DNA of 64,000 nucleotides from NCBI GenBank assembly GCA_965215515.1, contig OZ244057.1, positions 224,001-288,000 of the forward strand, given 5' to 3'. The DNA is from Oligoflexales bacterium. GTDB taxonomy: Bacteria; Bdellovibrionota_B; Oligoflexia; Oligoflexales; JAPPIL01. Below, piece by piece: positions 4,483-59,035 of the stretch (positions within the stretch are counted from its first letter, which is position 1; each line of letters begins with the position of its first letter). The notes beneath the pieces were generated by a model, which was not told the DNA's origin, ran no database searches, and worked only from the letters and a program-made list of their open reading frames with translations. Both the position numbers and the translations under genes were made by a program.

Positions 4483-5262
4483 TCAGGCCACGAAGCTCAG
4501 CCCATCGTAGGCGAAGTTGATGCCTGGTGGCAGTTCGGCACGGTGCTTGTGGTAATCAACCTCGTGCGACAGGTGGGTGATGAAGCCGCGACGTACGTTG
4601 AGGGCTTGCAGGATGGCTATCGATTCTTGCACCGAGCTGTGGGTTTTATGTGTGCGGAAGCGTACTCCGCTGATGACCATCGTGTCGATTTTGTTTTGCC
4701 AGCGTGCGATCAGTGTGGGGGCGAAGGTTTTGAAATCGGTGGCGTAGGCGAACTTGCCGACACGGAAAGCGTCGGTCATGATTGCCCCGTGTGGCAGACG
4801 CACACTCTCGACCTGCAATCCCGCGACTGTGAAGGGTTTGTCTGGCAGGGGCTTGAGGTCTATCTGGGGCAGTGTGCCGTAGTATCTGCTCTGCGTGTCG
4901 AAGACGTAGCGGAAGCGTTGTTTGAAGTCGGCGATGAAGTCTGTATGCATGTAGCAGGGGATAGAGTTGTTTTTGTCGTGGAAGGCGAACATACGCAGAT
5001 CGTCGAAACCGTGACAGTGGTCAGCGTGAGTGTGGGTGTAGAGCACCGCGGCCAGTGCTTTGACTTCGGCGCGCAGCATCTGCAAGCGGAATTCGGGGGC
5101 AGTGTCGATGACGATATTGCCCCTCCTGTGGGTGAGGAGCAATGAGGAGCGGGTACGGTGGTTTTCGGGGTGCTGGCTGCGGCACACGGAGCAGTCACAA
5201 CCGATCACGGGCACACCCGTGGAAGTGCCGCTGCCGAGGACGGTAACCTTGATGGCTGGCAT
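4483..5262 (-). CDS. MBL-fold metallo-hydrolase (PhnP-like)
   Basis: LGSGTSTGVP.IGC.C.VC, THTHADHCHGFDD, THLSH; start at MPAIKV. Confidence 0.93.
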   Translation of the reverse strand: MPAIKVTVLGSGTSTGVPVIGCDCSVCRSQHPENHRTRSSLLLTHRRGNIVIDTAPEFRLQMLRAEVKALAAVLYTHTHADHCHGFDDLRMFAFHDKNNSIPCYMHTDFIADFKQRFRYVFDTQSRYYGTLPQIDLKPLPDKPFTVAGLQVESVRLPHGAIMTDAFRVGKFAYATDFKTFAPTLIARWQNKIDTMVISGVRFRTHKTHSSVQESIAILQALNVRRGFITHLSHEVDYHKHRAELPPGINFAYDGLSFVA

Positions 5263-5505
5263 CGTGTCTGTCCCTTCCCCCCCTCCGTGCTGCTCCACGA
5301 TAGCAGGAAGGAACGGGAAAGAGAACGATTAAAATCAGTTGATCTTCACCGAGAAACTGCTGATGTTGTAGTTGCTGGTTTTTTCGTTGATGACAAGTAT
5401 TTTACCCCGACAGGTGGTGGAGGCGGGTCCCTTAACTTTTACCAGCATTTTTTTTCTATTTTGTGGATCAGGATAAATTCTTAGGTCACAGTGAGAGTCC
5501 TCCTT
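5237..5505 (+). repeat. Left copy of 269-bp direct repeat flanking rpn-1; holds the MBL gene 5' end and an orphan 3' end of the 6837..7481 gene
   Basis: aggacggtaacc...tcctt matches 6739..7007 with 4 mismatches seen. Confidence 0.97.
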
Positions 5506-5697
5506 ATCGTCGGACTGAAATGCTCCTCTGCACCCTTTAAGCTCTAGACTACGTCCGCACAAAACTTGCGCACATGTAGCGCCCTTCACAGGAAGCATAT
5601 CCATGTAGTTACAGTATGTTGGGAAATTTACCCGCATTTGTTAGCCAAGTACACCAGCCTCGTGTTAAAATATCGAGCACAGCATGACAGGGTGAAC

Positions 5698-6708
5698 ATG
5701 ATTGGGCGACGAAGACGCATAGGGCAGAAAAGACAGCGCCACAAGGCTGCCAAAGCCCGTCACTCCCACCCTCATGACAGCGTCTTCAAGACAATCTTCA
5801 AGCGTCCCGAACACTGCCGTGCCTTGCTACAGGTCTTGCTTTCCCCTAGCTTCTACACCATCTTCAACTGGCCCGCGCTGCAGATCACCGAAAGCACCGC
5901 AGCGGGAAGGAAGGGACAGGAACGCAGAGCTGACATCGTACTGGAAGTGCCGTTGTGGCCTTCCAAAGCCCGTGTCATCATCACTATCATCTTGGAGCAC
6001 AAGAGTTACCGTGACAACGACACCATCCTGCAGATGCTGGGCTATTACAACGAGATCGCCCAACAGACGGGCGGCATCATCCTCCCCATCATCGTCACCT
6101 GTGGCAAGGACAAGAGAGCAGTTATCCCCTCCGATTACCTTAGTTGGGCACTGCAAAGGCAGGGTGCACCCGAAGAGTTGAGGCGGCAACTGAAGAAAAT
6201 TGCCAATTTTGCTTGTCCTTTAGTGAACTTACACGATTTATCCTACCGTCGCATGCGCCGCGGAGGCGAGGTGGTGAGCTTGGCGTTGTTCGGCATACGT
6301 AACTACTGGGATATGGACGAGGAGGTAGTGGTCAAGATTCTCAAGAAGGCACGCCTGTTGCCACAACAGGAGCGAGAGTTTATGCTCAATGTGTTAATGG
6401 ACTACTACGAATGTGCCGATAAGGGGTACGACGTGAGGGGGTTTGCGGAGATTGAACGTAAGCGTTTTCCACACCTGAAGGAGGAAGAGAGACTGATGCC
6501 AGAGATGGAATTTGGCCTTGATAGAGCGAGACAAGAGGGCATACGGCAGGGTATCGAGCAAGGTATGCGCAAGGGCGTAGAGCAAAAGCAGCAGGATGTT
6601 GTCGCGCGGATGTTGGCGAGAGGTATGCCTGACAAGCAGATTTGTGACGTTACACAGATCAGCGCAAAAGAGCTAGCTGACATTAAGCGTGAGCTGCAAA
6701 AAAGCTGA
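5698..6708 (+). CDS. Rpn family recombination-promoting nuclease / putative transposase (rpn-1)
   Basis: PHDSVFK, RRADIV, ILEHKSY, C-terminal QEGIRQGIEQG repeats and HTH-like tail; ATG 5698. Confidence 0.93.
   Translation: MIGRRRRIGQKRQRHKAAKARHSHPHDSVFKTIFKRPEHCRALLQVLLSPSFYTIFNWPALQITESTAAGRKGQERRADIVLEVPLWPSKARVIITIILEHKSYRDNDTILQMLGYYNEIAQQTGGIILPIIVTCGKDKRAVIPSDYLSWALQRQGAPEELRRQLKKIANFACPLVNLHDLSYRRMRRGGEVVSLALFGIRNYWDMDEEVVVKILKKARLLPQQEREFMLNVLMDYYECADKGYDVRGFAEIERKRFPHLKEEERLMPEMEFGLDRARQEGIRQGIEQGMRKGVEQKQQDVVARMLARGMPDKQICDVTQISAKELADIKRELQKS
6496..6708 (+). CDS. Predicted in-frame internal RpnS-type antitoxin (70 aa)
   Basis: AAGGAGG followed by an in-frame ATG at 6496, just before the EG/QG repeats, as described for Rpn genes. 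Confidence 0.55.
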   Translation: MPEMEFGLDRARQEGIRQGIEQGMRKGVEQKQQDVVARMLARGMPDKQICDVTQISAKELADIKRELQKS

Positions 6709-6738
6709 TCGTCAGGTAGCTCACAAATTTGCCCATCA

Positions 6739-7007
6739 AGGACGGTAACCTTGATGGCTGGCATCGTGTCTGTCCCTTCCCCCCCTCCGTGCTGCTCCAC
6801 GATAGCAGGAAGGAACGGGAAAGAGAACGGTTAAAATCAGTTGATCTTCACCGAGAAACTGCTGATGTTGTAGTTGCTGGTTTTTTCGTTGATGACAAGT
6901 ATTTTACCCCGACAGGTGGTGGAGGCGGGGCCCTTAACTTTTACCAGCATTTTTTTTCTATTTTGTGGATCAGGATAAATTCTTAGGTCACAGCGAGAGC
7001 CCTCCTT
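6739..7007 (+). repeat. Right copy of 269-bp direct repeat flanking rpn-1
   Basis: Offset 1502 from 5237..5505; holds the intact 3' end of 6837..7481 and an orphan MBL 5' end. Confidence 0.97.
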
Positions 7008-7481
7008 TTTGAACACATTTATCTGGTGGGTATCTTGGCTCGCGGTGGCAAACGTGGCAGTACCGATATACTTGAAGTCAGTACTTGCCCCCTGCACGCT
7101 AGGATGGCCTTGCCAAGTGATTTTGATACTGTGGTCGATCTCGCCTCTCCCCGTCGCAACGCTTGGTTCAACACACTTGCTGCCAGTCCAGCTGTAGTTT
7201 CTATCCTTTTCTTTGCCGATTTTATCGCAGTCCTCCTGGCTGTTCGCCCCTTCGCAGGCAGTCAACCCATTGACCATACCCAGGTGCTTGACACAGAATG
7301 CCAGATCTGGTGGAACGCATAATTTTTTCGTGCTGTCATAAGCTTGATACTTATCCTTGCAGGATTGCGCATTTACGGCGGTGCTGTCTTTGGGCTTTTT
7401 CTTGATCTCACAGGCGGGTAAAGCCAGTGAAGCACAGGTAAGGAGGTTGGCGACTGCAAAGATGCGGTTTTTTTGTGTCAT
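6837..7481 (-). CDS. Hypothetical Cys-containing lipoprotein (214 aa)
   Basis: ATG 7481 after GAGGA; MTQKNRIFAVANLLTCASLALPAC lipobox; the longer ORF-track version is antisense to serB. Confidence 0.8.
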   Translation of the reverse strand: MTQKNRIFAVANLLTCASLALPACEIKKKPKDSTAVNAQSCKDKYQAYDSTKKLCVPPDLAFCVKHLGMVNGLTACEGANSQEDCDKIGKEKDRNYSWTGSKCVEPSVATGRGEIDHSIKITWQGHPSVQGASTDFKYIGTATFATASQDTHQINVFKKEGSRCDLRIYPDPQNRKKMLVKVKGPASTTCRGKILVINEKTSNYNISSFSVKIN

Positions 7482-7559
7482 ACTATCCTCGCTCGGTGTA
7501 AAGTGTGTACATTCTCTATTGTAGCATGCAACAGCCGATTGCGCATGAAAGGCGTGGAA

Positions 7560-8390
7560 ATGACACAAACACGGGTGGTTACAGACGATGTGCGCATTGT
7601 ACGTGATTTTTTCAACATAGACAAGTGGGAGGAGGTCGGTCAGCCCCCGTTGTTGGTAACAGCGGTGCCTTCCGCACAACTGCATAGCTTGCCGTGCGGT
7701 TTTTGGCAACACTGCCACCTGCACAACATAACCTGCGGCTTCAGGGACACGCAGACGCACATCAAGGCGGTGTTCTTTGACATGGACCGCACGGTAGTGC
7801 GCGAGGAATCGATCGTCGAACTGGCCAAAATTGCCGACCGCAAAGCGGAGATCGAAAGACTCACCGACCAAGGCATGGCAGGCACTCTGTCCTATCGGGA
7901 AGTCTACGACCGCCGCATCGCGATGCTCAGCTCCGTCAGCCAGGAACAGATGGCAGACCTCCACCGTGACCTGCATTTTAACCAAGGCATCCGTGATACT
8001 CTGCTTGAGTTAAAAAAACTAAATATAAAAGTTTTTCTTATCTCATCGGGATTTTACCCTGTAGTCAAAGAAGTGTGCAAGGTGTTGCAATTTGATGACT
8101 GTGAGGGCAGCCGTGTCAAGTTTAGCGATGGGTATGTTACTGCGGAGGGGGAACATGTTATAATTGACGGTGAGGGGAAGCGTGCGTGGATGGAGCGAAA
8201 GTGTCGAGAGCTCGGTATTGGTTTGCATGAGGTGGCTGCTGTCGGTGACGGAGCTAACGATGTGGCGATGATGCAGGTGGCGGCGGTTGCGGTTGGCTTT
8301 TCCCCTCAGGCAGTGTTGTTGCAGTACGTGAATGCGTTGAATCTCTGTGGAGATCATCGTTTTTTGATACCGTTGTTAACAGGTGAGTAG
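7560..8390 (+). CDS. serB: Phosphoserine phosphatase SerB (HAD family)
   Basis: FDMDRTV, ESIVELA, ISSGF, AVGDGANDVAM; start could be 7545. Confidence 0.85.
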   Translation: MTQTRVVTDDVRIVRDFFNIDKWEEVGQPPLLVTAVPSAQLHSLPCGFWQHCHLHNITCGFRDTQTHIKAVFFDMDRTVVREESIVELAKIADRKAEIERLTDQGMAGTLSYREVYDRRIAMLSSVSQEQMADLHRDLHFNQGIRDTLLELKKLNIKVFLISSGFYPVVKEVCKVLQFDDCEGSRVKFSDGYVTAEGEHVIIDGEGKRAWMERKCRELGIGLHEVAAVGDGANDVAMMQVAAVAVGFSPQAVLLQYVNALNLCGDHRFLIPLLTGE

Positions 8391-8399
8391 GAAGCAATC

Positions 8400-9041
8400 G
8401 TGAAAAACAACATCCTTTGCATGGTGGCGATGTGGGTACTGGTGTCTTGCGTCCCTGTTCCTGTACGAGACCGACCGACCTCCGGTGTGCGCAGCGACTT
8501 TAGCATCGAGCCTGAGGGCACTTGGCTGATACGCTGTCTTGATGTCGCTAGCTCTGCCGCGGGGAAAGCGATTGTTGCCCACCAGATGAAAGTAGTTTTT
8601 GCTGCAGAAGAGCCGACCTTCACCTTGTCGCACAGTTTTCTGAGCCAGGGTTGCACAGACGACCAGCCTGAGGTGGCCTTGCACAGACAGATTCAGGGTA
8701 GAATCAAACTGGGGGAGCATGCCGATATCGACGATAGCAGGCGTGGTCGTGCGGTGGAAGTGGAGATTAGCCGCGATTCGTACACTCCCAAAACCAGAAC
8801 TGGCTTGGACTACCTGCGTGAGAGACTCGATGACGGGGTGGGTAGCTCGCCCGCGGTCGGCGAGGAGATGGTTATCCCTGAAAATATCAGACCTTACAAC
8901 AAGCTTTACGGAACATTGGCAGTAGCCAAAGCCGTCCGCAATGCCATGCATGTCTACCTCGGCCCCCAGCGGAAGAACATCGAGGACATCGTTCCGCATC
9001 TCAATGCCAGCAATCTCTACGTGCGACACATCACCAAGTAA
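8400..9041 (+). CDS. Hypothetical lipoprotein
   Basis: GTG after AGGA, LVSC lipobox, directly downstream of serB. Confidence 0.7.
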   Translation: MKNNILCMVAMWVLVSCVPVPVRDRPTSGVRSDFSIEPEGTWLIRCLDVASSAAGKAIVAHQMKVVFAAEEPTFTLSHSFLSQGCTDDQPEVALHRQIQGRIKLGEHADIDDSRRGRAVEVEISRDSYTPKTRTGLDYLRERLDDGVGSSPAVGEEMVIPENIRPYNKLYGTLAVAKAVRNAMHVYLGPQRKNIEDIVPHLNASNLYVRHITK

Positions 9042-9060
9042 GTTGGCAAGGGGAGCAAAA

Positions 9061-10056
9061 CTAACCTGCACGCCGTGCGATACGGGTGCGCCAGTTAGCT
9101 ATCAGTGGACTGTCAGGGGCATGTTTGCTGACTGCTTCCAGTTCCTCGCTGGCAGCATCAAGATCTCCCCGCTGGTAAAATTCTTTCACAATCTCAAGAT
9201 GAGTACGGAGGAGAAGAGCACGGTGGCTTGGTAAGCCCTTATCATCAGCAGACAGTTGGTTGATCTGGGTCTCATATGCCGCGACTGATTTGCGGTAGGT
9301 GGCTATGGCTTTGTCTGAGTTGCCACGGCGTGCATATGTGTTGGCGAGGCTGGAGAGAATGTGGGGGTTGTGCGGTTGTCCTGCTGCGGCGTTCTCGATA
9401 TACCCGACCGCTTCGTCTCCACGTCCGTCGGAGAGCAGCATCTGCCCGATGCCCAGGGAAAGAAAAGAGGCATCTTTGGGCGAGGCATCCTTCTGTAAAC
9501 TCTGCATGAACTGCATGCAATGCTCGACACTGTCTTGTTCGGCACAGATAGCAGCCAGCTCTGCCAACACCAAGCGGTTGGATGGGTTGACCTGCAGTGT
9601 TCGTTCCAACCAAGGTATGGCGGCGGCTGCATCCTTGTAGTCGATCAGGTGTATCATGCTGACCTCAATCAACGCTCTCTCGTTCTTGGGATCTCGGTTG
9701 ATAATCTTTTCCAAAATTGCCAGTGCATCGTCGGGGTTGCCGCCATCGACTAACTCGATCGCTTTTTTGAGTTCCTCATCGTTCGGTGCGATCTCTGTTG
9801 GGGGCGGGGTACTATCGGCTACAACCTCAGTATTTTCGCGGCGAGGAAGAGACTGTGTTTCCTCGTGCTCATCACGCAGCGGACGCACACGCGTCTTCTG
9901 GCGCAACAGCTGTGTTTCTTCACTGGCGAGCGAGGGCAATTCACTTTGTTCCTTTTCGGGCGCAAAATAAACCAACAGGGCGACGAAAATCGCCAGCGCG
10001 GCGACGAGCAATACCAGCGACCCCAGAAACTTAACCTCGTTACGACTCTTGTCCAT
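9061..10056 (-). CDS. Membrane-anchored tetratricopeptide repeat protein
   Basis: N-terminal TM helix; TPR-like helices (AIPWLERTLQVNPSN, AIATYRKSV); coupled to htpG. Confidence 0.85.
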   Translation of the reverse strand: MDKSRNEVKFLGSLVLLVAALAIFVALLVYFAPEKEQSELPSLASEETQLLRQKTRVRPLRDEHEETQSLPRRENTEVVADSTPPPTEIAPNDEELKKAIELVDGGNPDDALAILEKIINRDPKNERALIEVSMIHLIDYKDAAAAIPWLERTLQVNPSNRLVLAELAAICAEQDSVEHCMQFMQSLQKDASPKDASFLSLGIGQMLLSDGRGDEAVGYIENAAAGQPHNPHILSSLANTYARRGNSDKAIATYRKSVAAYETQINQLSADDKGLPSHRALLLRTHLEIVKEFYQRGDLDAASEELEAVSKHAPDSPLIANWRTRIARRAG

Positions 10057-10059
10057 TCG

Positions 10060-11922: not shown

Positions 11923-12002
11923 GTTCTTTTCGCTCTTTCCTCTGTGATTTCAGACAGCCACAGGTGGCTAGCACTACACCTGTGCCACAACCGTCGCCCG
12001 CC

Positions 12003-12031
12003 AGTATAGCACACTGACAGTATTTTGGCAA
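12003..12031 (-). promoter_or_regulatory. sigma70-type promoter for htpG
   Basis: Minus strand TTGCCA-N17-TATACT with extended TG. Confidence 0.6.
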
Positions 12032-13081: not shown

Positions 13082-13275
13082 GTCCCGCTTGTTTTTAAGT
13101 ATTGACCATTGTTCATCTGTGAGTACAATGCCTCTCATGGGTAAACCTCTGGAAATTATTGTTGTATCTTTCCATATGATGCAGGTTTGCCCTACTAATT
13201 ACAAGTGGTTACCACACACAAAAATCATTAAACGAAACGGCGACACGCCCTAATACTTGCTGTTATCATCACTAG

Positions 13276-14283
13276 ATGACAGACGACGAAAACCAGAAAG
13301 GGATCTTAGCTATGTCAATACATGCTTTGCATAATGCCCTGTTCGTTGCCGTGTTCACCGGCAACGAACAAATGGCTGTGGAAATAATCAAGTACCTGTT
13401 AGGAAAGGAAAGAGCCGCTCACTTTATTTTCAAAACACTTGCATTCCAAGCGACGGTGTTCACCGACGCGGAAGGTAAGGAGAGGCGTGCCGACACCGTT
13501 ATCTCGGTGATGACCAAGGATGGACGGCGGGTGGTGTTTCTCATCGAACACAAAAGCACCCAAAGCAGAGATCTCTTCCCCCAACTGCTCTCATATCAAA
13601 CCATTCTCTACACAAACGCTAGCGACGAGATCGTGCCTATCGTTATCTCCACAGCAAAGAAACAATGGAGACTACCACAACGTTTTCGCTCCACCTCCGA
13701 CAACATATGCGGGGAGGTAACACTCAATTTCGGCTACCTGCTGCTTGATCTAGCGGCTCTTCCCAGAGAGGTATTGCAAGCTGAATTTCCGCAGTCATAC
13801 CCCTACCTGCTGGCCTGGCAAAGTCTGCAACAGTTGAACAAAGAGGCGATCGAGGCGTTTTTTGTCGGCAGTCTTGCCCTGCGCAAGGAGGAAAGGTTAA
13901 GATTAATGGGTCAGGTGACCAACTGCCTCACCGAATCCAGTGGCAACTTCAGTATGAATGTGCTAGAGAGGATCGAGGCTGGTTGTATCAAGAAAATAAA
14001 GGATAGGTTGATGCGCACCGTCAAAATTGGTCAAGAAGGTTGGCTAGAACAGGGCTTCAAGAGGGGACTGGCCGAAGGCAAGGCCGAAGGCAAGGCCGAA
14101 GGCAAGGCCGAAGGCAAGGCCGAAGGCAAGGCCGAAGGCGAAGCCAAAGGCAAGGCCGAGGAACGTTACGAGATCGCACTCCGTATGCTAAAGGAGGGCG
14201 AGCTTGAAGCTAAAATCCGCCGCATCACTGGCATAACCAAAAAAGAAATAGCGTCGCTACAGCGTGGCCTAAAAACGAAGTAG
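13276..14283 (+). CDS. Rpn family nuclease (rpn-2)
   Basis: LHNALF, RRADTV, FLIEHKSTQ, (AEGK)n repeats; alternative start 13312. Confidence 0.92.
   Translation: MTDDENQKGILAMSIHALHNALFVAVFTGNEQMAVEIIKYLLGKERAAHFIFKTLAFQATVFTDAEGKERRADTVISVMTKDGRRVVFLIEHKSTQSRDLFPQLLSYQTILYTNASDEIVPIVISTAKKQWRLPQRFRSTSDNICGEVTLNFGYLLLDLAALPREVLQAEFPQSYPYLLAWQSLQQLNKEAIEAFFVGSLALRKEERLRLMGQVTNCLTESSGNFSMNVLERIEAGCIKKIKDRLMRTVKIGQEGWLEQGFKRGLAEGKAEGKAEGKAEGKAEGKAEGEAKGKAEERYEIALRMLKEGELEAKIRRITGITKKEIASLQRGLKTK
14011..14283 (+). CDS. Predicted internal RpnS-type antitoxin (90 aa)
   Basis: AAGGATAGG before an in-frame ATG at 14011. Confidence 0.5.
   Translation: MRTVKIGQEGWLEQGFKRGLAEGKAEGKAEGKAEGKAEGKAEGEAKGKAEERYEIALRMLKEGELEAKIRRITGITKKEIASLQRGLKTK
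14071..14154 (+). repeat. 12-bp tandem repeat GCCGAAGGCAAG encoding AEGK
   Basis: Five perfect copies (14071-14130) plus two degenerate ones. Confidence 0.95.
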
Positions 14284-15647: not shown

Positions 15648-15652
15648 TGACT

Positions 15653-15931
15653 TTAGTCCTTCAATGCCTTTTTAATTGCAGCTAATTTTTTGCTGTTGAG
15701 CCGCAGAACGTTACAAATCTGCTCATCAGGTATGCCTATTGCCAGCATGCGTTCAGCTAACACATTGAGCATAAACTCTCGCTCCTGTTGTGGCAACAGG
15801 CGTGCCTTCTTGAGAATCTTGACCACTACCTCTTCGTCCATATCCCAGTAGTTACGTATGCCGAACAACGCCAAGCTCACCACCTCGCCTCCTCGTCGCA
15901 TGCGACAGTAGGATAAATCGTGTAAGTTCAC
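15653..15931 (-). pseudogene. Rpn fragment: near-identical internal piece of rpn-1 joined to a different C-terminal tail
   Basis: NLHDLSY...EFMLNVL matches ~6222-6396, then jumps to AERMLAIGIPDEQICNV. Confidence 0.85.
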
Positions 15932-16189
15932 TGGTGGAAGGTTTCCAGTGAAGGCTATTTGTCGTGCTTTAGAGGCATATCTACACCCCTGAGGTTAATT
16001 AAGTTTCTGTACCAACTTTTTTCAAAAAGTTGTGCGGGGTATGGGGCAGCGCCCCATCTTCCCTCTCTCCCGCAATATTGCAGGTAGACAATGGTAATTT
16101 GGGGGTTTTGGCAACGTAACTAAAGTAAAAAAAAAAACGACGATGATGTTCGCGCGGGGAGGTTTTGTTTTTAGCCAAAAAAAAGGGAA

Positions 16190-47715: not shown

Positions 47716-47731
47716 CTGCGCCACCCAGCCC

Positions 47732-51413: not shown

Positions 51414-51539
51414 GTTTCCCACCTGTATCGAGCAAGCGCAGCGGACAGCTCTAACTTTTATCGGTGTTGTCGTCAACTGCTTTTTGCGGTTGCATCCTAT
51501 CGGCAATGAGATAACAATCGAGGATATAGGCGGTGAGGT

Positions 51540-52612
51540 TTGCACGTGTTACAGGGCATCTGTGCCAAGATACAAGCGGGCGATAGCATCAGCCGTGACG
51601 AGGCTTTTTTTCTGCATGAGCACGCTGATCTCGCCGTGTTGCAACGACTGGCGACACAGGTCAAGGCACGTTTTCACTCTCGCGATGCCGCGACTTACTT
51701 GGTGATGGCGATTATCAACTACACCAACATTTGCGTAGCTAACTGTGATTTCTGTGCGTTCTTCCGTTTCCCGCATCAGGAGGCACTTATCTGTTAACCA
51801 CTGCGGAGGTATTGCGGCGGGTCGCCCACTTCCGTCGTCTCGATGCGACTTTGATTGCTTTCAACGGTGGTTTCCACCCCAAGTTACAGCTCGATCATTA
51901 TGCTCGTCTGTTCGAGAAATTGCATGCGACGTATGGCGACGAGTTGACATTTTTCGAGATGACGGTGGCTGAGTTTATGTTCGCCTGCAAGCTTTCCAAG
52001 CTCAGCTATGCGGCGGGGGCGCGGTTGCTACGTAGTGCTGGCACAGGTTGGATTACGGGGGGCGGGGCGGAGGTGTTGACCGATAGTTTTCGCCAGCGTC
52101 ATAGCCGTGGGAAGTACACGGTCAGCGATTACTACGATGCACAGCAGGCTATTCTCGCGGCGGGTATTGGCTCAACAGCCACGATGGTTATCGGCTTCGA
52201 CGAAACGCTCGACGAGAGACTGGCGCATCTCGAACAGCTACGTGTTTTCCAGCATGCCAACGGCAATGCCCTGACGAGTTTTTTGTGTTGGACGTATAAG
52301 CCTGAGCACAATCGTCTCGGCGGGGAAGAGATAACGGCTAGTGCGTACTGGCGGTGGTTGGCGATCTGCCGTATCTTCCTCGACAACTTCGTCCATATCC
52401 GCACTTCGGTGTTAACGCAGAACGACGATGCCTTGCGGGGCTTGGATTTCGGAGCCGACGACTTCGATGTGCCGCTGGAGGATGAAGTTACTTGCAGTGC
52501 GGGTGCTACCATTGCCGACGACTACCGTGCAACATTGGTTGCCGCGCAGCGTTTCGGCTATCGACCTCGCCTACGGCGACCGTGGCGCGGGCACGATGCC
52601 GTGCTAGCTTGA
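51540..52612 (+). pseudogene. MqnC/CofH-like radical SAM gene split by a 1-nt frameshift
   Basis: INYTNICVANCDFCAF ends at TAA 51797; the downstream frame reads GTYLLTTAEV..GGGAEVL..STATMVIG; one G appears missing at ~51780-51783. Confidence 0.8.
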
Positions 52613-52692
52613 CCCGTAGCGGGTGAGGAGATGTCCCTAAGACAAGATAAGCCTTGCCGCGTCTTGCCGATGCGTTATACTACCCGACGGGG

Positions 52693-52779
52693 GGAGAGGT
52701 GGCTGAGTGGTCGAAAGCGCTGCCTTGCTAAGGCAGAGAATGGGTCACTGTTCCGAGGGTTCGAATCCCTCCCTCTCCG
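52693..52779 (+). tRNA. tRNA-Ser (GCT)
   Basis: GGAGAGG..CTGCC-TTGCTAA-GGCAG, long variable arm, GGTTCGAATCC. Confidence 0.96.
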
Positions 52780-52796
52780 CTTGGCCTCGTGCCTTC

Positions 52797-52870
52797 GCAC
52801 CCGTAGCTCAGTTGGATAGAGTACGAGACTACGAATCTCGTGGTCGGGCGTTCGAGTCGCTCCGGGTGCG
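52797..52870 (+). tRNA. tRNA-Arg (ACG)
   Basis: GCACCCGTAGCTCAG..CGAGA-CTACGAA-TCTCG..GTTCGAGTC. Confidence 0.96.
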
Positions 52871-52890
52871 CTCTGCATATCGGCACGCAG

Positions 52891-52925
52891 AATCCGTCCT
52901 CGCCAGTATTCGGCGGGGACGGATT
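52891..52925. terminator. Hairpin after the tRNA operon
   Basis: AATCCGTCCTCGCC...GGCGGGGACGGATT. Confidence 0.65.
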
Positions 52926-53248
52926 ATTGAAAACAAACCGCAAGCGGACTTCTGCCTCGTCCACGCGTCTAACGGTAATCTTTGCAAATATCCGCCGATA
53001 GGTAGATCTAAGCTGTAGATGCTCCCGTAAAAAGCGGACACCCTATCGGCCCCTAACAGGGGAGCACTGCAAGTGTTTTAAAAAACTGAGTGCCGTATAA
53101 TTATAATCAATTTGTATAAATCATACTGTTGTCTATTTTTATGTTTTCTTAAAATTGTTTCCTTAAAAAATTAGAAACAAAACTAAATTAACTAAAACAA
53201 GTGGCCGATGTCAGAGATGAAATCAGGTTGTTACTATGTAGGTGTAAT

Positions 53249-55033
53249 ATGGCTCGAAAGGCAAAAGAGTTACGTCTCACCCAGCTTGAGGAGTTTCTGA
53301 GCAAGGTTGATGCCTGTGGGGAAAAATTTTCTCAACGGCAAAAAATTGAACTGGGAAAACATTTCCTTGAGGTTGTTATGGGGCTTAGAGGTGAGTTTAT
53401 TGCCTGTAAACAGAGCAAAGAATCACCTGATTTTGAACCTCACAATGAGGAGTTATACCCGTGGGCGTTGTTTGTCACTGATAAAGATGATTTGCAAGAA
53501 GATTACCATGACAGAGCACAGTTGTATCTGCATGGTGATAATGCGGGTAAAAAGAACTATGTTGTTGTCACTAACGGCAAAGAGATGTGTGTGTTTGATT
53601 TTAATCACGAGATAGCTAAATACACCGTTCTGTTTGATAAGCTTATCAGTGGCAATACCAAAGCTATCAAACACTGGCAGGTATTTCTCTCTGATTTCGG
53701 TGTTGAAAGTGCAGAGAAGAAGAAAAAGGAACGAAAAAAAGAAAGAAGGCTAAAAATATATCCACAACAAAATTATGTTATCTGTGGAGATTGCATAGAC
53801 TGGCTGGAAGATATACCACCCGCATCGGTCGATATGTGTTACATTGATCCACCGTTTTTCTCAAATAGAAATTATGAGATTATCTGGGGCAATGGCTACG
53901 AGCGTCGCTCTTTTGAAGATCGCTGGAAAGGCGGCATCCATGCCTACATCGAATGGATGGAAAAAAGAGTTAAATTGATTCACAGATGCCTGAAAGAAAC
54001 AGGATCGATTTTCTTGCACTGCGACTATCGTGCCAGTCACAAGCTCAGAGGAATGTTGGACGATGAATTTGGGAAAAGCAATTTTAGAAATGAGATTGTG
54101 TGGTGCTACACGGGGCCGTCAAATTCAAAGAATTTTTTCCCAAGAAAACATGACACCATTCTATACTACAGCAAGAGTAAGGAATCATTCTTCAAAAAAA
54201 ACGCTGTAAGAATACCTTACAGTGACTCATTCATACACCGCAGAAGCTATACCGAGGGCAAGAAAGGGATTACTGCTGGGTATTCTGAAGGCAGAAATAG
54301 TGAGGAAATAACGGAATCTTTTGGTGAAGGAAAAATTATTGAAGACTGGTGGTCAGATATACCATCTGGAGGACAGATTTCAAGAAAAGAGCGTCTCGGT
54401 TATAAAACCCAAAAACCAGAAAAAATTCTGGAGCGAATAATTTCTTGCTCCACCAACGCAAACGATTTAGTGCTTGATTGTTTCGCGGGTGGTGGCACGA
54501 CCGCGGCTGTGGCTGCTAAACTCAACCGTCGGTTCATCGTTGGCGATGTATCACCTGTGGCGGTGCGGGTTATCAGTGATAGGCTAAGCAAAATAACTGA
54601 TGCGCCTGAATTTGATTTGCTTAACGTTCCTCTCACCAAAACGGAGTGGTTAGAAATGGATGGCCATACCTTCGCTGCAAAAATCTGTGAGTTTATGGGC
54701 TGGGAGTGCAACCCGAAGAAATCTGATGACGGTGGCATTGACGGCTGGGCGAATAAAGGTTCTATTCCTGTACAAATTAAAAACCATCGCCAAAGTATCG
54801 GAGTCAATCCGATTAAAAATTTCTACGCCTCGCTGGGCAAAGCTGCGCAAGGTATTTTTGTCGCGTGGAGTTTTGCCCCAAAAGCTGAAGAATACCGCGC
54901 CAAAGTTAAAAAAGACGAGTGCAAGGAAATTATTTTCAAGCCCGTAACGGAAATACTGGGCAGTATCTTGATTGATGATGATGAGAAAATAAAACTTGAT
55001 GAGCTTAGCAAAAAATACGACAAAGCAGCCTAG
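53249..55033 (+). CDS. N6/N4 DNA methyltransferase fused to an N-terminal HsdR_N-like domain and a C-terminal Mrr-like nuclease domain
   Basis: YVVVTNG; YIDPPF..TQKPE..DCFAGGGTT (beta order); DGGIDG..VQIK..GIFVAWSF; AT-rich; ATG 53249. Confidence 0.85.
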   Translation: MARKAKELRLTQLEEFLSKVDACGEKFSQRQKIELGKHFLEVVMGLRGEFIACKQSKESPDFEPHNEELYPWALFVTDKDDLQEDYHDRAQLYLHGDNAGKKNYVVVTNGKEMCVFDFNHEIAKYTVLFDKLISGNTKAIKHWQVFLSDFGVESAEKKKKERKKERRLKIYPQQNYVICGDCIDWLEDIPPASVDMCYIDPPFFSNRNYEIIWGNGYERRSFEDRWKGGIHAYIEWMEKRVKLIHRCLKETGSIFLHCDYRASHKLRGMLDDEFGKSNFRNEIVWCYTGPSNSKNFFPRKHDTILYYSKSKESFFKKNAVRIPYSDSFIHRRSYTEGKKGITAGYSEGRNSEEITESFGEGKIIEDWWSDIPSGGQISRKERLGYKTQKPEKILERIISCSTNANDLVLDCFAGGGTTAAVAAKLNRRFIVGDVSPVAVRVISDRLSKITDAPEFDLLNVPLTKTEWLEMDGHTFAAKICEFMGWECNPKKSDDGGIDGWANKGSIPVQIKNHRQSIGVNPIKNFYASLGKAAQGIFVAWSFAPKAEEYRAKVKKDECKEIIFKPVTEILGSILIDDDEKIKLDELSKKYDKAA

Positions 55034-55040
55034 TAAAAAC

Positions 55041-55427
55041 TCAAACCAAAATACCTTTAGTATAGACAATGCCTTTCTTGCCCCAAAAAGTAACGGGTGG
55101 GTCGATAACTTTAACAACTTCGATGTGCCAACCCCATTTTGGTTTCTTCCATGCCCAGGGTGAGTTTTTATCTATGCGGTGTAGGGGATAATCGGCGTAG
55201 AAAGTTTTGCGGTTGGGGTATTTGAAGCACTTAGTAAACCTGATGATGGCTGTAGCACGGGATTTGAATTTACCTGTGCGACCTGGGGTTTCGATTAGTA
55301 GCATCTCTTTGTTTAGATAGTGTGGTGGGATGGGATAGGTGCGGGTTTCGATGGTTTTTTTGCCTGCAATGATTTCTCTGGAGATAGGCCATTGAATATT
55401 GATACCTGTGTAGGTTTTTTTAGTCAC
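55041..55427 (-). CDS. ASCH domain protein
   Basis: INIQWP...IIAGKKTIETR (GxKxxExR). Confidence 0.85.
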   Translation of the reverse strand: MTKKTYTGINIQWPISREIIAGKKTIETRTYPIPPHYLNKEMLLIETPGRTGKFKSRATAIIRFTKCFKYPNRKTFYADYPLHRIDKNSPWAWKKPKWGWHIEVVKVIDPPVTFWGKKGIVYTKGILV

Positions 55428-55746
55428 GGTGGTTGAGGGGACGATGCAGTGTATCTTTGTTATGCGGCTTTAAGCACTTGTTGTTGGTGTGTCGCATACG
55501 CACATCCCAATTGATGTCACGAGCCGTTTTTGTTTTAGCAAACTTCTCGACGCGATCTATGGCATTGCAACAATCCTTCTTGTTAGACCACAGGTCTTGA
55601 TCTTGCCAAAAATGATTTTCACCATTGCCGATGTAACAGGTGGTGAATTGTACGCCTCTTTGTTGGCATTTGGCATGGATACGCTCATAGTAAGCTCTGA
55701 TCTCGGCATCGCTATAAGGATGGGAGTATCTCCTTGTTGTTGCTTG
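55420..55746 (-). pseudogene. 3' remnant, lacking a start, of a gene coupled to ASCH
   Basis: 109-codon open frame with no 5' start: YSDAEIRAYYERIHAKCQQRGVQFTTCYIGNGE..WSNKKDCCN; its stop overlaps the ASCH GTG. Confidence 0.65.
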
Positions 55747-55787
55747 CTAGCTACCCTCAACTACGATGCTGCCCAGCTCAGCTTCAT

Positions 55788-55857
55788 TTGGCTGTTGCCG
55801 CACGCTTGGATTGTGCCCAGCAGCCAAGAGGTGGCCAGCCCACGATTAGGCCGATAA
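55788..55857 (+). repeat. Left copy of ~70-bp diverged direct repeat flanking rpn-3
   Basis: 56/70 ungapped identity to 56964..57033 by manual alignment. Confidence 0.85.
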
Positions 55858-55959
55858 TGTCTCCTTCTTTGTGGCATCGTGGTTGATATAGTGCTTCCCT
55901 TTGTGAGAAGATGCTGTCAGGTAGGCAACGGCGTTAGCAACAACCAGAAACGGCGGACT

Positions 55960-56919
55960 ATGACAAAACGAGCCTTACACAGTGCCTTGTTTACAGCGAT
56001 CATTACCAACAATCGGGTATTCATCGAGGAACTGCTAGCTTTACTGCTGCCTCCTGAAGAGTTTGTCAGGCTTGTTCTCAGGACGCTGAAGTTCGAGGCG
56101 ACGGTGTTCACTGATGCCGATGGCAATGAACGCCGTGCTGACGCGGTAATCTCTGTCATGACCAGAGACGGCCAGCGGATTATTTTCTTGATTGAGCACA
56201 AAAGCACACAAGAGAAGGGGCTTTTGGGGCAAATGCTGAATTATCAGGCATTGCTTGATACACACATGGCCGACAAGGTTATCGTCATTGTGATCTCTAA
56301 TGCTAAGGGACGCTGGCGCATGCCAATGAGTTTTCAGGGCAAGTTCGCCAACAGTGCCAATGCCATAGGCAGCAACGTAGCCCTAGATTTCGGCTATTTG
56401 CTGTTCCATATGCCCGACTACAATCAAGAGGACATCATCAAGATATTTCCCAAGAGCCATCCCTACATTCTGCCGCTGCACTGCATTAGGGACTTGACCC
56501 GTGAGAAGGTGGCCAAATTTTTTCGCAGCACCCTGATATTGGAGATCGAGGAGAGAAAACGGCTTTTGGAACTGGCAACTGATTGTTTCTCTAAATTCAA
56601 TAGCGATTATGGTATATCTGTGCTAAAAGGTATCGAGGTGGCAGCTATTAAAAAACCAAAGGATAGACTTATGAAAGAAATCAAGATTGGCCGCGAGGGT
56701 TGGCTTGAAGAGGGCATTCTTCAGGGTCGGCAAGAGGGTCGGCAAGAGGGTGAGCGAGCAATTGAGGCGGTGGCGTTGCGTATGCTGGAGGACGGCATGA
56801 GTGTCGCCGCCATTTGTCGCATTACGAAGCTCAGTCGCAGTGTAGTCAACAGGCTAGAGCAAGAGGGCAGCAAGCTAGAAAACTCTAAAAAGCGTAGCAA
56901 AGCAAAGAAGCGCGCCTAA
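55960..56919 (+). CDS. Rpn family nuclease (rpn-3), closest to rpn-2
   Basis: LHSALF, ATVFTDADGNERRADAV, FLIEHKSTQ, QEGR repeats; ATG 55960. Confidence 0.92.
   Translation: MTKRALHSALFTAIITNNRVFIEELLALLLPPEEFVRLVLRTLKFEATVFTDADGNERRADAVISVMTRDGQRIIFLIEHKSTQEKGLLGQMLNYQALLDTHMADKVIVIVISNAKGRWRMPMSFQGKFANSANAIGSNVALDFGYLLFHMPDYNQEDIIKIFPKSHPYILPLHCIRDLTREKVAKFFRSTLILEIEERKRLLELATDCFSKFNSDYGISVLKGIEVAAIKKPKDRLMKEIKIGREGWLEEGILQGRQEGRQEGERAIEAVALRMLEDGMSVAAICRITKLSRSVVNRLEQEGSKLENSKKRSKAKKRA
56671..56919 (+). CDS. Predicted internal RpnS-type antitoxin (82 aa)
   Basis: AAGGA before an in-frame ATG at 56671, at the same KDRL-M position as in rpn-2. Confidence 0.5.
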   Translation: MKEIKIGREGWLEEGILQGRQEGRQEGERAIEAVALRMLEDGMSVAAICRITKLSRSVVNRLEQEGSKLENSKKRSKAKKRA

Positions 56920-56963
56920 GCTGGCTGTCTCGCCTAATCCTCTGCTGGAAGCCTGCTATCCCG

Positions 56964-57033
56964 TTGGCTGTTGCTGCATGCTGGAGATGTGCCCAACAGT
57001 CAAGAGTTGGCTAGCCCTCGGCTAAGCCGATAA
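56964..57033 (+). repeat. Right copy of ~70-bp repeat; includes the stop of the recombinase fragment
   Basis: ttggctgttgc...gccgataa, offset 1176. Confidence 0.85.
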
Positions 57034-57346
57034 CGCTATCCTCCCCTTCCGCCTTGCCACATAAACCCCTTCGCGTTTCAGTATTTTTATAATCGTGTTG
57101 CCGTGCCAACTTTTACCCTGCTGCTTGGTGGGTAGCTTCATCGTGTTCAAGAATCGGACAATGGCGTTCGTACTGATGCCCTTGCCATACATTTGCTTGA
57201 TGGTGGCGATGGTGCGCAATTCGGCCTTGTGGTCTATGGTCTTGCCGCTGACCCGACGCTTGCCATAGGCTAGTCTAGAGCCGTGGCGTTCTGATCGCTT
57301 GCGCAAGGGGATGTTATGTTTCAGCAACAGGTCTCTGAGGATAAAT
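57022..57346 (-). pseudogene. 5'-truncated recombinase-domain gene (large serine recombinase DNA-binding type)
   Basis: AYG..IKQMY..AIVRFLN..PTKQQGKSW..IIKILKR; the ORF-track N-terminus derives from the adjacent repeat. Confidence 0.7.
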
Positions 57347-57442
57347 GCACCCTCAAAGCCTGGTGATCCCTGCCTGGCAGTTTTGAAAAGCACTACCGTG
57401 CCGCACTGAAAATCATCGTTACCAGCACCTGCGAACGGCGGA
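57347..57442 (+). repeat. Left copy of ~95-bp direct repeat flanking the R-M pair
   Basis: Matches 58942..59035 with one substitution and a 2-nt indel. Confidence 0.95.
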
Positions 57443-57458
57443 GGATAAGGACGGTCGA

Positions 57459-58046
57459 CTATGGCTGGTTCGGCACGAGCGTTCCTTGTTGCAGCGGGTA
57501 AATTTGCTCAGCAACACAAAATTGCCTTTGTGCGAGAATGGCATCTAAAAATCTGTCATATTCAGTACTCGATGCGAGCACGACACCCGTTAGGCCGACG
57601 GTGAGGCCGTTTTTTATCTTATCTTTGACAGACTCGGCCTCCTTTTCGGACAACGTGACGAGATAGTTATCAGCGCCATGATATACTTGTCTCAATGCCC
57701 ACCCTTCTAAGTCCGCTTGTTTGTACCTTTCCCGCAGAGACACCTTCATGGTCAACACCACAGGATTTTGGGGGTGGTAAAGCACAATGTCAAAGCTAGC
57801 ATTGGGAAAGAGTTCGAACCTTGCTTGATAGTAAAAAGGAACAATATTTTGTTGTGCCAGTGTTTCACATATTAAATACTCAAAAACAAGTCCGTTAATG
57901 CTCGGATTGCTCTTGCTAGCTGCTAGGTACTTATCATAGGTACACTTAATAAATTGATGAGAATAAGTAAACTTTTCATTAGAAATTAAATTTCTGTATA
58001 TTGTACCAGCGGTACCGATAGTCAGTTTATTGATTCTGCTGTGCAT
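57459..58046 (-). CDS. Putative type II restriction endonuclease
   Basis: NGLVFE..FDIV..MKVSLRERYKQ, resembling the KxSxRER motif of CCGG-family PD-(D/E)XK enzymes; overlaps the MTase. Confidence 0.75.
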   Translation of the reverse strand: MHSRINKLTIGTAGTIYRNLISNEKFTYSHQFIKCTYDKYLAASKSNPSINGLVFEYLICETLAQQNIVPFYYQARFELFPNASFDIVLYHPQNPVVLTMKVSLRERYKQADLEGWALRQVYHGADNYLVTLSEKEAESVKDKIKNGLTVGLTGVVLASSTEYDRFLDAILAQRQFCVAEQIYPLQQGTLVPNQP

Positions 58047-58894
58047 TCTCGCGCGATTCTCCGCTCCGTGAGGTTGCAGTATTTTTCTTCCCGCTCAATA
58101 CCATAAGCAATGCGTCGATGGTTAATAGCTTCAATCATGGTTGTGCCGCTGCCACAGAAAGGGTCAAGTACCGTATCACCGACAAAAGAAAACAACTTGA
58201 TGCAGCGTTTGGGTAGTTCACGTGGGAAGGGAGCCTCATGCCCGATACGTTTAGCGCTTTCGCCGTTGAAATCCCAGCTACCGAGTACCGAGTGCTTAAA
58301 CTCTTCGCCGCCGATGTCTGAATCACCCTGGCGCTGTCGTTTCCACTCCCCTTTGTAGAACACAATGATGACCTCGACAGGAGCGATAACATGTGGCGCG
58401 CTGGCGGACTTCCAACTGCCCCAGGCAGTGCGCCGTGAGATGTTGCCCTCGTTCCACAGAATCGTGGCATGGTATCGCCAACCAACCCGCATTGCCAACG
58501 TGGTAATGTTCGCGGCGAGCGGTTGTTTGCCGTTTTTGTTTTTGTCGATCGAAACGTTGACACACATACGTCCCGTGTTATGGGTCCAATAAAAACAGTT
58601 GGCCAGCCACTTTTTGCTGAAACGAAGATAGTCACGATAATCTACCGCATCGTCTTTCTCTGCGCCACTGTAGCATTTGCTGATGTTGTAGGGAGGAGAA
58701 GTAACGATCAGGTCAATACTGTCGGCAGCTAGTATACCACGATGCGTGGCATCACCGTGCAGCAGCCTGTATCGCTTACCCTCGAGCTTGCTACCACAAG
58801 CGGAAGATTGCCGCAGCGGCTGCGCTGTATCTAGCAAGTTAGCCCCCACAATCGACACCAAGACTGCGATCCATTGTAGCACACACTCGCCCAA
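58022..58894 (-). CDS. N4-cytosine/N6-adenine DNA methyltransferase (beta class)
   Basis: TSPPY..HEAPFP..DPFCGSGTT; SPPY is typical of m4C enzymes; start uncertain. Confidence 0.92.
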   Translation of the reverse strand: MGECVLQWIAVLVSIVGANLLDTAQPLRQSSACGSKLEGKRYRLLHGDATHRGILAADSIDLIVTSPPYNISKCYSGAEKDDAVDYRDYLRFSKKWLANCFYWTHNTGRMCVNVSIDKNKNGKQPLAANITTLAMRVGWRYHATILWNEGNISRRTAWGSWKSASAPHVIAPVEVIIVFYKGEWKRQRQGDSDIGGEEFKHSVLGSWDFNGESAKRIGHEAPFPRELPKRCIKLFSFVGDTVLDPFCGSGTTMIEAINHRRIAYGIEREEKYCNLTERRIARECTAESIN

Positions 58895-58941
58895 AAATTA
58901 TAGGCCTATTGCTGCTGAACGATTGTTGTCCTTGGGTGAAG

Positions 58942-59035
58942 GCACTCTCAAAGCCTGGTGATCCCTGCCTGGCAGTTTTGAAGCACTACCGTGCCGCACT
59001 GAAAATCATCGTTACCAGCACCTGCGAACGGCGGA
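58942..59035 (+). repeat. Right copy of ~95-bp direct repeat; contains the 3' end of 58986..59909
   Basis: gcactctcaaagcc...gaacggcgga. Confidence 0.95.

Follow-up and report, generated by a model that had tools for sequence, protein, structure and literature searches.

Small nuclease-coding cassettes in an uncultured bacterium (order Oligoflexales) lie between long direct repeats, an architecture that is very probably the product of insertion with long target duplication. In the window, by which we mean the whole 64,000-nt stretch analysed, two such cassettes carry a single Rpn gene (rpn-1 and rpn-3) and a third a likely R-M pair. None of the three repeats belongs to a dispersed multi-copy family; each is present in exactly two copies, counted across the whole 2.18-Mb source genome (G000), a single contig with an estimated completeness of 93.9%. 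Two members of the same genus, G001 and G002, were compared with it. Outside the cassettes, profile searches showed the 54-kb span to be ordinary chromosome.

Two Rpn cassettes at sites that are empty in congeners

The rpn-1 cassette is flanked by a direct repeat of 269 nt with 4 mismatches (5237-5505 and 6739-7007; 98.5% identity). Its left copy (T1-L, 5237-5505) is continuous leftwards with a metallo-beta-lactamase-fold gene and includes the start codon of that gene (5260-5262, minus strand), while the 171 bp on its right-hand side repeat the 3′ end of gene 6837-7985 in non-functional form. The right copy (T1-R, 6739-7007) is continuous rightwards with that same minus-strand gene and includes its stop codon (6837-6839). 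Between the copies, on the plus strand, lie 130 bp (5506-5635) from the interior of a dispersed repeat, followed by the rpn-1 unit (5636-6738) with its Rpn gene (5698-6708; PF04754, 46.8 bits). The dispersed repeat has 5 more near-full copies (∼88–91%), all longer on both sides than the fragment.

In G001 the site is uninterrupted and holds a single copy of the 269-bp sequence. Spacing of the flanking genes there is 560 bp, against 563 bp expected from the window once the cassette and one repeat are both subtracted. T1-L and T1-R both align to one G001 segment, T1-L continuing into ancestral sequence leftwards and T1-R rightwards. A further Rpn locus, outside the window at G000:1749053-1750834, has a 309-bp repeat (96%). 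In G001, and again in G002, the two copies align to a single segment, with the right flank collinear (offsets: 661 vs 645 bp; 547 vs 540 bp). Because the empty sites in the congeners carry one copy, the repeats at these two loci are target duplications, in line with the first-pass annotation, which had called the window repeats target-derived. Four public runs, all from one study, contain the rpn-1 locus, in short contigs that end at the repeats and leave T1-L partly uncovered; no joints were listed in them, and neither circle nor empty-site reads were seen.

The rpn-1 unit occurs in 7 copies in the genome at 94–99% identity, and its homology to paralogs stops at 6738-6740. The right joint has a 2-bp overlap (AG) and the left joint none. 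Donor flank of differing length accompanies the seven copies: on the left, the window copy has 130 bp of the dispersed repeat and the first unit of array A ∼20 bp; array B has 36 bp of the array A spacer; the copy at 544k is shorter at both ends and lacks a unique bracket. This variability bears out the earlier view that the cassettes have no ends of their own. A by-eye resemblance to terminal inverted repeats was discarded because copy ends vary.

The rpn-3 and R-M cassettes and their shared neighbour

Local comparison of the rpn-3 flanks (55788-55857 and 56964-57033) gave a 70-nt repeat at 80% identity (E=7e-14). The left copy corresponds to a G000-specific C-terminal extension of ORF 55489-55857, and the right copy includes the stop (57022-57024) of minus-strand ORF 57022-57393. 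The cassette between them (55858-56963, plus strand) holds the Rpn gene 55879-56919 (PF04754, 37.7 bits). In G002 an rpn-3 homologue is adjoined by the right-hand repeat copy only. ORF 57022-57393, which neighbours both the rpn-3 and the R-M cassettes, encodes a small 123-aa protein with a partial 'Recombinase' DNA-binding domain (PF07508, 30.5 bits) but lacking a catalytic one; it is a multi-copy gene family in G002.

Flanks of the R-M cassette (57339-57442 and 58934-59035) match in blocks of 49 nt at 92% and 55 nt at 100%, with a 2-bp indel between them; a gapped alignment gives 99 nt at 96%. An exact 30-nt search of metagenome contigs with this repeat returned 0 matches. The left copy contains the functional 5′ end of ORF 57022-57393 and, as a non-functional duplicate, the final codons and TAG of ORF 58986-59909. 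The right copy is the true 3′ end of the latter ORF with its TAG stop (58986-58988), and the copy of the ORF 57022-57393 5′ end within it has a 2-bp deletion. On the minus strand of the cassette (57443-58933) a methyltransferase gene (58022-58894; PF01555, 135.9 bits) overlaps a 195-aa gene (57459-58046) by 25 nt. The 195-aa protein itself scored 15.5 bits (E=0.018) against PF18643, the profile for BsaWI-type restriction endonucleases. Its homologues (E about 1e-42 to 1e-46) do match that profile, the three that were scanned scoring 29.1, 28.8 and 25.8 bits, two of them above the 26.2-bit cut-off. The cassette is likely an R and M gene pair, the R assignment coming through homologues only.

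Because synteny is broken at both, empty sites for rpn-3 and the R-M pair were not found in G001 or G002, where the flanks map to separate places. In all three bracketed cases of the window the repeat includes the stop of the minus-strand gene on the right (6837-6839, 57022-57024 and 58986-58988), and both neighbours are intact; the initial observation about stop codons and the idea that host genes are spared both hold. Repeat identities from 80% to 98.5% fit events of different ages, also proposed at that stage.

Frequency of bracketed Rpn genes

Matches to PF04754 number 19 in G000 (17 of them above the curated 21-bit cut-off), 63 in G001 and 9 in G002, an expanded family in this lineage. 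In an alignment of four Rpn proteins D79, E100 and K102 (the D...E-x-K core) are invariant; we take these to be the catalytic residues of the family.

A genome-wide scan found unique flanking brackets at 3/19 Rpn genes versus 5/1802 other ORFs (Fisher p=5e-5), leaving 16/19 Rpn genes with no such bracket. Counted by event, three of the six unique-bracket cases carry Rpn genes, though Rpn genes are only 19 of 1821 ORFs. The proposed check of rpn genes against controls came out in the same direction: two-copy flank repeats of at least 50 bp were present at none of 250 control genes, which were matched by size and not specifically accessory, and one of the 250 had a 34-bp repeat. One further unique-bracket event carries an NYN-domain gene; its empty site was not found in G001 or G002, and its flanks map to separate places there.

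Several candidates were set aside. The first-pass annotation had listed four cassettes between direct repeats; rpn-1, rpn-3 and the R-M pair stand, and rpn-2 (13276-14283, plus strand; PF04754, 45.7 bits) does not, as its best direct flank match spans 18 nt (E=0.076) and does not adjoin the gene. The rpn-2 tail contains a 12-bp tandem repeat coding GKAE tetrapeptides (14058-14171). Local flank comparison showed no flanking repeat at the MTase-Mrr fusion gene (53201-55033). Excluded before counting were repeats of 7 to 22 copies (at 418k, 1920k, 1038k, 99k, 1597k and 1168k); the CRISPR array at 825k; two membrane-protein genes at 294k, which are paralogues in tandem; the 603k locus (4 copies), where another AbiEi fragment comes after an AbiEi/AbiEii pair; and an isolated 70-bp piece of 16S lying 2.85 kb away from the intact gene.

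The bracket pattern did not generalise among the other genomes sampled. Tight flanking repeats occurred at 31/44 Rpn segments of G001, and sequence comparison placed all 31 in multi-copy families, with 7 to 161 copies within the set of sequences retrieved; G002 had a two-copy repeat at one of nine segments. Among other loci tested, 14/37 had some flank repeat; most of those inspected turned out to be Rpn paralogues in tandem or else multi-copy repeats. Locus L137 (137 bp, 95.6%) looks comparable to the bracketed cases in G000.

How the cassettes may have been inserted

We propose that a copy of 1.1–1.5 kb of DNA from another location, with one Rpn gene or an R-M pair, would be joined into a junction at a gene end or between genes, and that this same event would duplicate 70–309 bp of target, leaving the cassette flanked by a copy to its left and another to its right. 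The left copy would retain the start or promoter of the left neighbour and the right copy the 3′ end and stop of the right neighbour, and therefore neither would be damaged. In what is the likeliest, though tentative, mechanism, break-induced template switching, a break or nick at the replicating target would let the growing 3′ end take the donor locus as its new template, extend through the cassette and rejoin the target upstream of its departure point, with a short tandem duplication and a templated insert at the joint as the outcome. The nuclease cargo may itself favour insertion by making nicks or breaks; RpnA leaves 3′-OH nicks proposed to permit primer-template switching (Kingston et al. 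2017, J Bacteriol 199:e00787-16, PMC5350276). Gene ends would lie inside the repeats because insertions that harm either neighbour would be lost to selection. At a later stage the two copies could recombine through RecA, with excision or amplification of the cassette as the result. Taken whole, insertion with long target duplication together with this mechanism seems to us rather probable; the template-switch step by itself we put forward tentatively, as no intermediate was seen and joints of 0–2 bp fit other illegitimate joining equally.

No integrase or classical transposase was detected in the cassettes by Pfam, though Rpn itself is annotated as a 'putative transposase'. Capture by NHEJ was rejected, as Ku was not found in the 2.18-Mb contig, at its estimated completeness of 93.9%.

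An alternative is Campbell-type re-integration, in which recombination between the repeats frees a circle of cassette plus one repeat, which after transfer RecA integrates at the same site in a naive genome, restoring repeat-cassette-repeat. RecA is present in G000; Furuta 2010 (PMC2853133) cites this route, the R-M 'life cycle' hypothesis of Kobayashi's group, together with evidence that flanking repeats allow amplification; and at G000:416930-419411 we see repeat-rpn-repeat-rpn-repeat, the repeat there coming from a multi-copy family. Such a route covers spread at one locus, but not the first acquisition of each locus's own repeat, and for rpn-1 a donor family with extended flanks sits in the same genome; we consider it unlikely.

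The three Rpn events among six, and the expansion of the family, could also point to Rpn as the mobility enzyme, as the first-pass annotation suspected. Rpn genes would then be selfish genes that mobilise themselves in cis, and occasionally neighbouring defence or other nuclease cassettes in trans, through end-less insertion by nicking and priming copy-choice synthesis. Overproduced RpnA promotes RecA-independent recombination (Kingston 2017, PMC5350276). On the other hand, most Rpn genes, here and elsewhere, have no such repeats; this architecture also surrounds R-M genes in species whose study did not refer to Rpn (PMC2853133); and a survey of rpn genes, where it addresses autonomous transposition, found no evidence for it (Zhong et al. 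2023, PNAS 120:e2307382120, PMC10400941). This reading is accordingly a speculative one that we judge improbable. If true, long variable target duplications would replace fixed ends, 'transposase_31' would be a real end-less mobility enzyme, and transposon-free movement of defence genes would be explained.

The repeat and the insertion might instead be separate events, a block of target plus cassette having been duplicated in tandem and one cassette then deleted. G000 does have tandem Rpn arrays, of 2 and 3 units, and Zhong 2023 (PMC10400941) ascribes Rpn arrays to tandem duplication. Yet neither of the two larger rpn-1 arrays contains a spacer specific to its locus, and a simple insertion of rpn-1 at one edge of the 269 bp would cost gene 6837-7985 171 bp (56 codons plus stop), at the other edge the start codon and immediate upstream sequence of the beta-lactamase-fold gene, making this history quite improbable. 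Site-specific integration, with the repeats as attL and attR, is highly improbable: the gene beside two cassettes has a partial serine-recombinase DNA-binding domain (PF07508) but lacks the catalytic domain, no cassette holds an integrase, the repeats are mutually unrelated and 70–309 bp long, and cassette ends vary among copies.

We return to insertion with long target duplication as the preferred reading. It bears on how defence and toxin genes without a transposase or integrase change sites. G000 offers natural Rpn insertions of different ages, with base-resolved joints, sites that are empty in relatives and a donor family on the same chromosome. The signature of long unique duplication, variable ends and 0–2 bp joint overlap is searchable at scale and reproducible at the bench.

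Comparison with known systems

Unlike classical IS elements or transposons, the cassettes have no fixed ends, and their duplications (70 to 309 bp) are not of constant length. Unlike integrase-driven elements, they carry no tyrosine or serine recombinase, the 123-aa neighbour having only the DNA-binding part, PF07508. In FoSTeS/MMBIR models, built largely on work on rearrangements in eukaryotes and E. coli, replication template switching yields templated insertions at duplication joints. Our cases share the short tandem duplication, the foreign templated sequence at the joint and the very short microhomology; in our cases a role of replication is hypothetical.

The Rpn genes resemble those surveyed by Zhong 2023 and Kingston 2017 in PF04754, the D...E-x-K core and variable tails of four-residue repeats, and in having many paralogues, tandem arrays and variable ends of the moved segment. 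Different genes arriving separately at one junction also have a parallel there, in rpnC between panC and panD. According to the survey, target-site duplications are absent at rpn genes (Zhong 2023, PMC10400941), whereas here 3/19 have long duplications, two of them with empty sites in relatives. Amplification of R-M units through flanking long direct repeats (Sadykov et al. 2003, cited in PMC2853133 and PMC4760077) resembles the repeat-cassette-repeat-cassette arrangement with an Rpn gene at G000:416930-419411; it differs in that the repeat there is multi-copy and the larger rpn-1 arrays lack a locus-specific spacer.

What had been put forward as a candidate undescribed mobility system is an architecture that Furuta, Abe and Kobayashi (2010, NAR 38:2428, PMC2853133) had already described at R-M genes under the name 'insertion with long target duplication' (also credited to Nobusato et al. 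2000, Gene 259:99). In the 2010 paper it covers R-M types I–IV, with unique repeats of 46–423 bp, some overlapping gene 3′ ends, and cases were recognised by direct repeats >30 bp, a single copy in an insert-free relative, and R and M homologues in the insert. Within the window our repeats measure 269, 70 and ∼100 bp, and the one at G000:1749053-1750834 measures 309 bp; a single copy was found in a relative for rpn-1 (G001) and for the 1749k locus (G001 and G002). They are not multi-copy, and the inserts hold no mobility gene, with the caveat of the 'putative transposase' annotation. As in the R-M insertions of Furuta 2010, a small nuclease-coding insert without integrase or classical transposase sits between unique repeats, tens to hundreds of bp long, which are single in the insert-free genome, differ by locus and sometimes span the 3′ end of a neighbour. 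The Rpn cassettes have no R and M genes and hence depart from the published class. New for this mode of insertion is the cargo, a single Rpn gene in three events (two in the window) and an NYN-domain gene in one, and the in-genome donor family here, unlike in the R-M cases, reveals variable cassette ends. Rpn genes are now tied to an insertion mode known for R-M genes.

Three repeat-bracketed cassettes

The source contig is a single sequence of 2,180,710 bp with 52.6% G+C, the window being its bases 224001–288000. The 54-kb span over which the first-pass annotation had seen one recurrent architecture is mostly ordinary chromosome (htpG, glyA, the tol-pal region, serS, mdh, rplS). Three Rpn nuclease genes (PF04754) lie in it: rpn-1 (5698–6708), rpn-2 (13276–14283) and rpn-3 (55879–56919). 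All three proteins exceed the Pfam cut-off, and the D, E and K of the nuclease core are invariant across them; two members of the Rpn family have tails of four-residue repeats. A methyltransferase gene (58022–58894) is paired with a gene for a 195-aa protein (57459–58046) that has no family match above threshold of its own (PF18643, E=0.018, 15.5 bits). Homologues of this protein (E ∼1e-42 to 1e-46) match the BsaWI-type restriction endonuclease family; three were scanned, scoring 29.1, 28.8 and 25.8 bits, two of them above the family's 26.2-bit cut-off. By this transitive evidence the two genes are likely an R-M pair.

Four cassettes, each lying between two copies of a direct repeat, had been claimed, and three exist as described. 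The rpn-1 cassette is bracketed by 269-nt repeats with 4 mismatches (5237–5505 and 6739–7007), that of rpn-3 by 70-nt repeats at 80% identity (55788–55857 and 56964–57033; E=7e-14), and the R-M pair by repeats that align, with gaps, over 99 nt at 96% (57339–57442 and 58934–59035). In all three, as had been noticed, the minus-strand gene on the right has its stop codon inside the right-hand copy. Each of these repeats is present in exactly two copies in the source genome, G000. The fourth candidate, rpn-2, was rejected: it has no flanking repeat, the best match between its flanks being 18 nt (E=0.076). A Pfam family search found no integrase or classical transposase in any cassette.

To the left of rpn-3, window 53201–55857 carries a MTase-Mrr fusion gene and two small ORFs, a module that recurs twice in the congener G002 (L072, L073). 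Only the first 76 residues of ORF 55489–55857 are conserved, and in G000 its tail runs into the rpn-3 repeat. Close to either end of the window lies a DUF285 repeat protein made of 75-bp (25-residue) tandem units (1721–3211 and 61166–62791, on opposite strands).

Repeats as target sequence at two Rpn loci

Empty sites in congeners, that is, loci with one repeat copy and no insert, bear on the proposal that the repeats derive from the target. The genes flanking rpn-1 are 560 bp apart in G001, against 563 bp predicted for the window with the cassette and one repeat removed. In a three-way alignment both repeat copies fall on one G001 segment, with the ancestral sequence continuing leftwards from the left copy and rightwards from the right copy; judged from this alignment, the rpn-1 repeats are target sequence. 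A fourth case was found outside the window, where the Rpn gene at G000:1749449–1750435 lies between 309-nt repeats of 96% identity; both copies correspond to a single segment in each of G001 and G002, and the right flanks are collinear. The proposal thus holds at these two loci.

No empty site was found in G001 or G002 for rpn-3 or the R-M pair, because that part of the window sits at a synteny break. The divergence of the rpn-3 repeats (80% identity) is comparable to that between the two species (about 77%), and in G002 the rpn-3 homologue has beside it the right-hand repeat copy alone. Both observations fit, without proving, an old rpn-3 insertion.

The three cassette-bearing junctions hold other genes in G002. 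At the rpn-1 site, between a metallo-beta-lactamase-fold gene and gene 6837–7985 (minus strand), is a 561-aa Schlafen/AlbA_2 gene without a flanking repeat. Left of the ORF 57022–57393 homologue lie about 2.7 kb including an AbiEi-like gene, and between that homologue and the one of ORF 58986–59909 lie about 3 kb including a subtilase gene. Such changes of cargo parallel the separate arrivals of rpnC between panC and panD described in the accessible text of Kingston 2017 (PMC5350276).

The moved segment lacks fixed ends

G000 has seven copies of the rpn-1 unit at 94–99% identity: one in the window, one at 544k and the remaining five in two tandem arrays, of two and three units. The window cassette consists of 130 bp of dispersed repeat followed by the unit; the 130-bp piece is a fragment, since other copies of the repeat extend past it at both sides. 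The first unit of one array retains about 20 bp of this same dispersed repeat, the other array retains 36 bp of spacer from the first, and the copy at 544k, which lacks a flanking repeat, is shorter on either side. With donor flank varying in this way, the moved segment has no fixed ends, which bears out the end-less insertion suggested earlier and agrees with what the accessible text of Zhong 2023 (PMC10400941) reports for rpn genes generally. At the joints of the window cassette, donor and target have 2 bp (AG) in common on the right and none on the left.

A further 175 bp of the rpn-1 unit (97.7% identity, window 15758–15932) lie in the minus-strand feature at 15653–15931, adjoining an IS200-like Y1 transposase gene (PF01797; 15201–15647). 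At G000:416930–419411 the order is repeat, rpn (deleted), repeat, rpn, repeat, in units of 945 and 1415 bp; this looks like amplification through flanking repeats, though the repeat is of a multi-copy family.

Enrichment at Rpn genes

A genome-wide scan for direct repeats 200–8000 bp apart gave 129 merged pairs of at least 45 nt. Pairs from multi-copy families, from a CRISPR array and from tandem paralogues were discarded, as were an AbiE pair carrying a duplicated fragment and a stray piece of 16S. This left six events with whole genes bracketed by a two-copy repeat. Three are Rpn genes; the others are the R-M pair, an NYN-domain gene (71 nt, 95.8%) and a block beside cas3 including an Hsp70-like fragment (98 nt, 82.7%). 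Such brackets enclose 3 of 19 Rpn ORFs versus 5 of 1802 other ORFs (Fisher p=5e-5). A separate gapped test of flanks detected a two-copy repeat at 3 of 19 Rpn genes. Among 250 size-matched control genes, accessory or not, five had any flank repeat, one a two-copy repeat (34 nt) and none a two-copy repeat of at least 50 nt. The enrichment anticipated by the first-pass annotation is present in G000.

On its right, next to its right-hand repeat, the NYN cassette ends in a ∼100-bp dispersed repeat, much as the rpn-1 cassette has part of a dispersed repeat on its left. This ∼100-bp repeat has eight copies (window 13154–13252, G000:322576–322674 and six others), of which the one in the window lies just upstream of rpn-2. 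The cas3 gene (G000:832107–834320) starts inside one copy of its unique 98-nt repeat, which also brackets a 196-aa ORF; the CRISPR array is at G000:825121–826352. The stray 16S fragment (L014) duplicates 70 bp from inside the 16S rRNA gene at 91% (G000:844847–844916 and 847769–847837) and lies 2.85 kb from the intact gene, past a 692-aa ORF without a family match. A further locus (L150, G000:1152000–1172000) is a mosaic of many dispersed-repeat fragments with sharp breakpoints, containing fragments of defence-type genes (SNF2 and DEAD helicase pieces, PIN, DUF4325, a radical SAM gene, part of an MTase gene and part of an IS3-type integrase core).

Other genomes

PF04754 has 63 matches in G001 and 9 in G002. 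Tight flanking repeats of at least 40 nt were found at 31 of 44 Rpn segments examined in G001, all of them multi-copy short-repeat families (with 7 to 161 copies among the sequences retrieved), so that in G001 the alternative named by the first-pass annotation itself, a dispersed multi-copy family, applies. Most Rpn genes there (L032–L061, L069–L070) lie between ∼1-kb stretches of short multi-copy repeats, whose units include a ∼45-bp GC-rich motif in tandem; left and right stretches have up to 455 bp in common at 96%, and may be either favoured insertion targets or part of an element. In G002, one of nine Rpn segments has a two-copy repeat (51 nt, 98%), which includes the 3' end of the left neighbour.

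Some flank repeat was present at 14 of 37 further loci with enough flank (three from G001, one from G002, three from a Poribacteria MAG and seven from metagenome contigs). All but one of the seven inspected are duplicated upstream regions or tandem Rpn paralogues; the exception, L137 (137 nt, 95.6%), looks comparable by its flank repeat. In a phylum sample the family occurred in 6 of 131 genomes (E ≤1e-8).

Mechanism

The architecture is that of an insertion with simultaneous duplication of the target. Separate insertion and duplication events are unlikely for rpn-1, because plain insertion at either edge of the 269 bp would damage a neighbour: at one edge a gene would lose 171 bp (56 codons and the stop), and at the other edge the second gene would lose its start codon along with sequence immediately ahead of it. 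We infer that a template switch induced by a break or nick is the best-fitting mechanism for the simultaneous event. A growing 3' end would leave the target after the break or nick, copy the donor cassette, and re-enter the target upstream of its exit point. Variable ends, minimal microhomology and the absence of Ku, which was not found in G000, are consistent with such a switch, as is the primer-template switching proposed for RpnA nicks in the accessible text of Kingston 2017 (PMC5350276). That gene ends fall within the repeats would follow from selection removing insertions that disrupt neighbours. Rpn might also, with lower probability, mobilise itself. RecA is present in G000, and the repeats could therefore later support excision or amplification.

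Comparison with published systems

The architecture is a known insertion mode, insertion with long target duplication, and the R-M cassette is a further example of it. Nobusato 2000 reportedly described this mode for R-M genes. According to the accessible text of Furuta 2010 (PMC2853133), it was seen first for Helicobacter pylori R-M genes and then for R-M types I–IV in several phyla; the repeats are unique, 46–423 bp long and in some cases overlap a gene 3' end, and DNA breakage by the cargo was suggested as a common cause. Our literature search found no report of this mode for Rpn: the term 'direct repeat' is absent from the accessible text of Kingston 2017 (PMC5350276), and the accessible main text of Zhong 2023 (PMC10400941) gives rpn genes as lacking target-site duplications. 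On present evidence the cassettes do not amount to the undescribed mobility system first proposed; a known insertion mode accounts well for the earlier finding, which is real in three of its four parts, and what is new is the cargo, extended by the Rpn cassettes beyond R-M genes.
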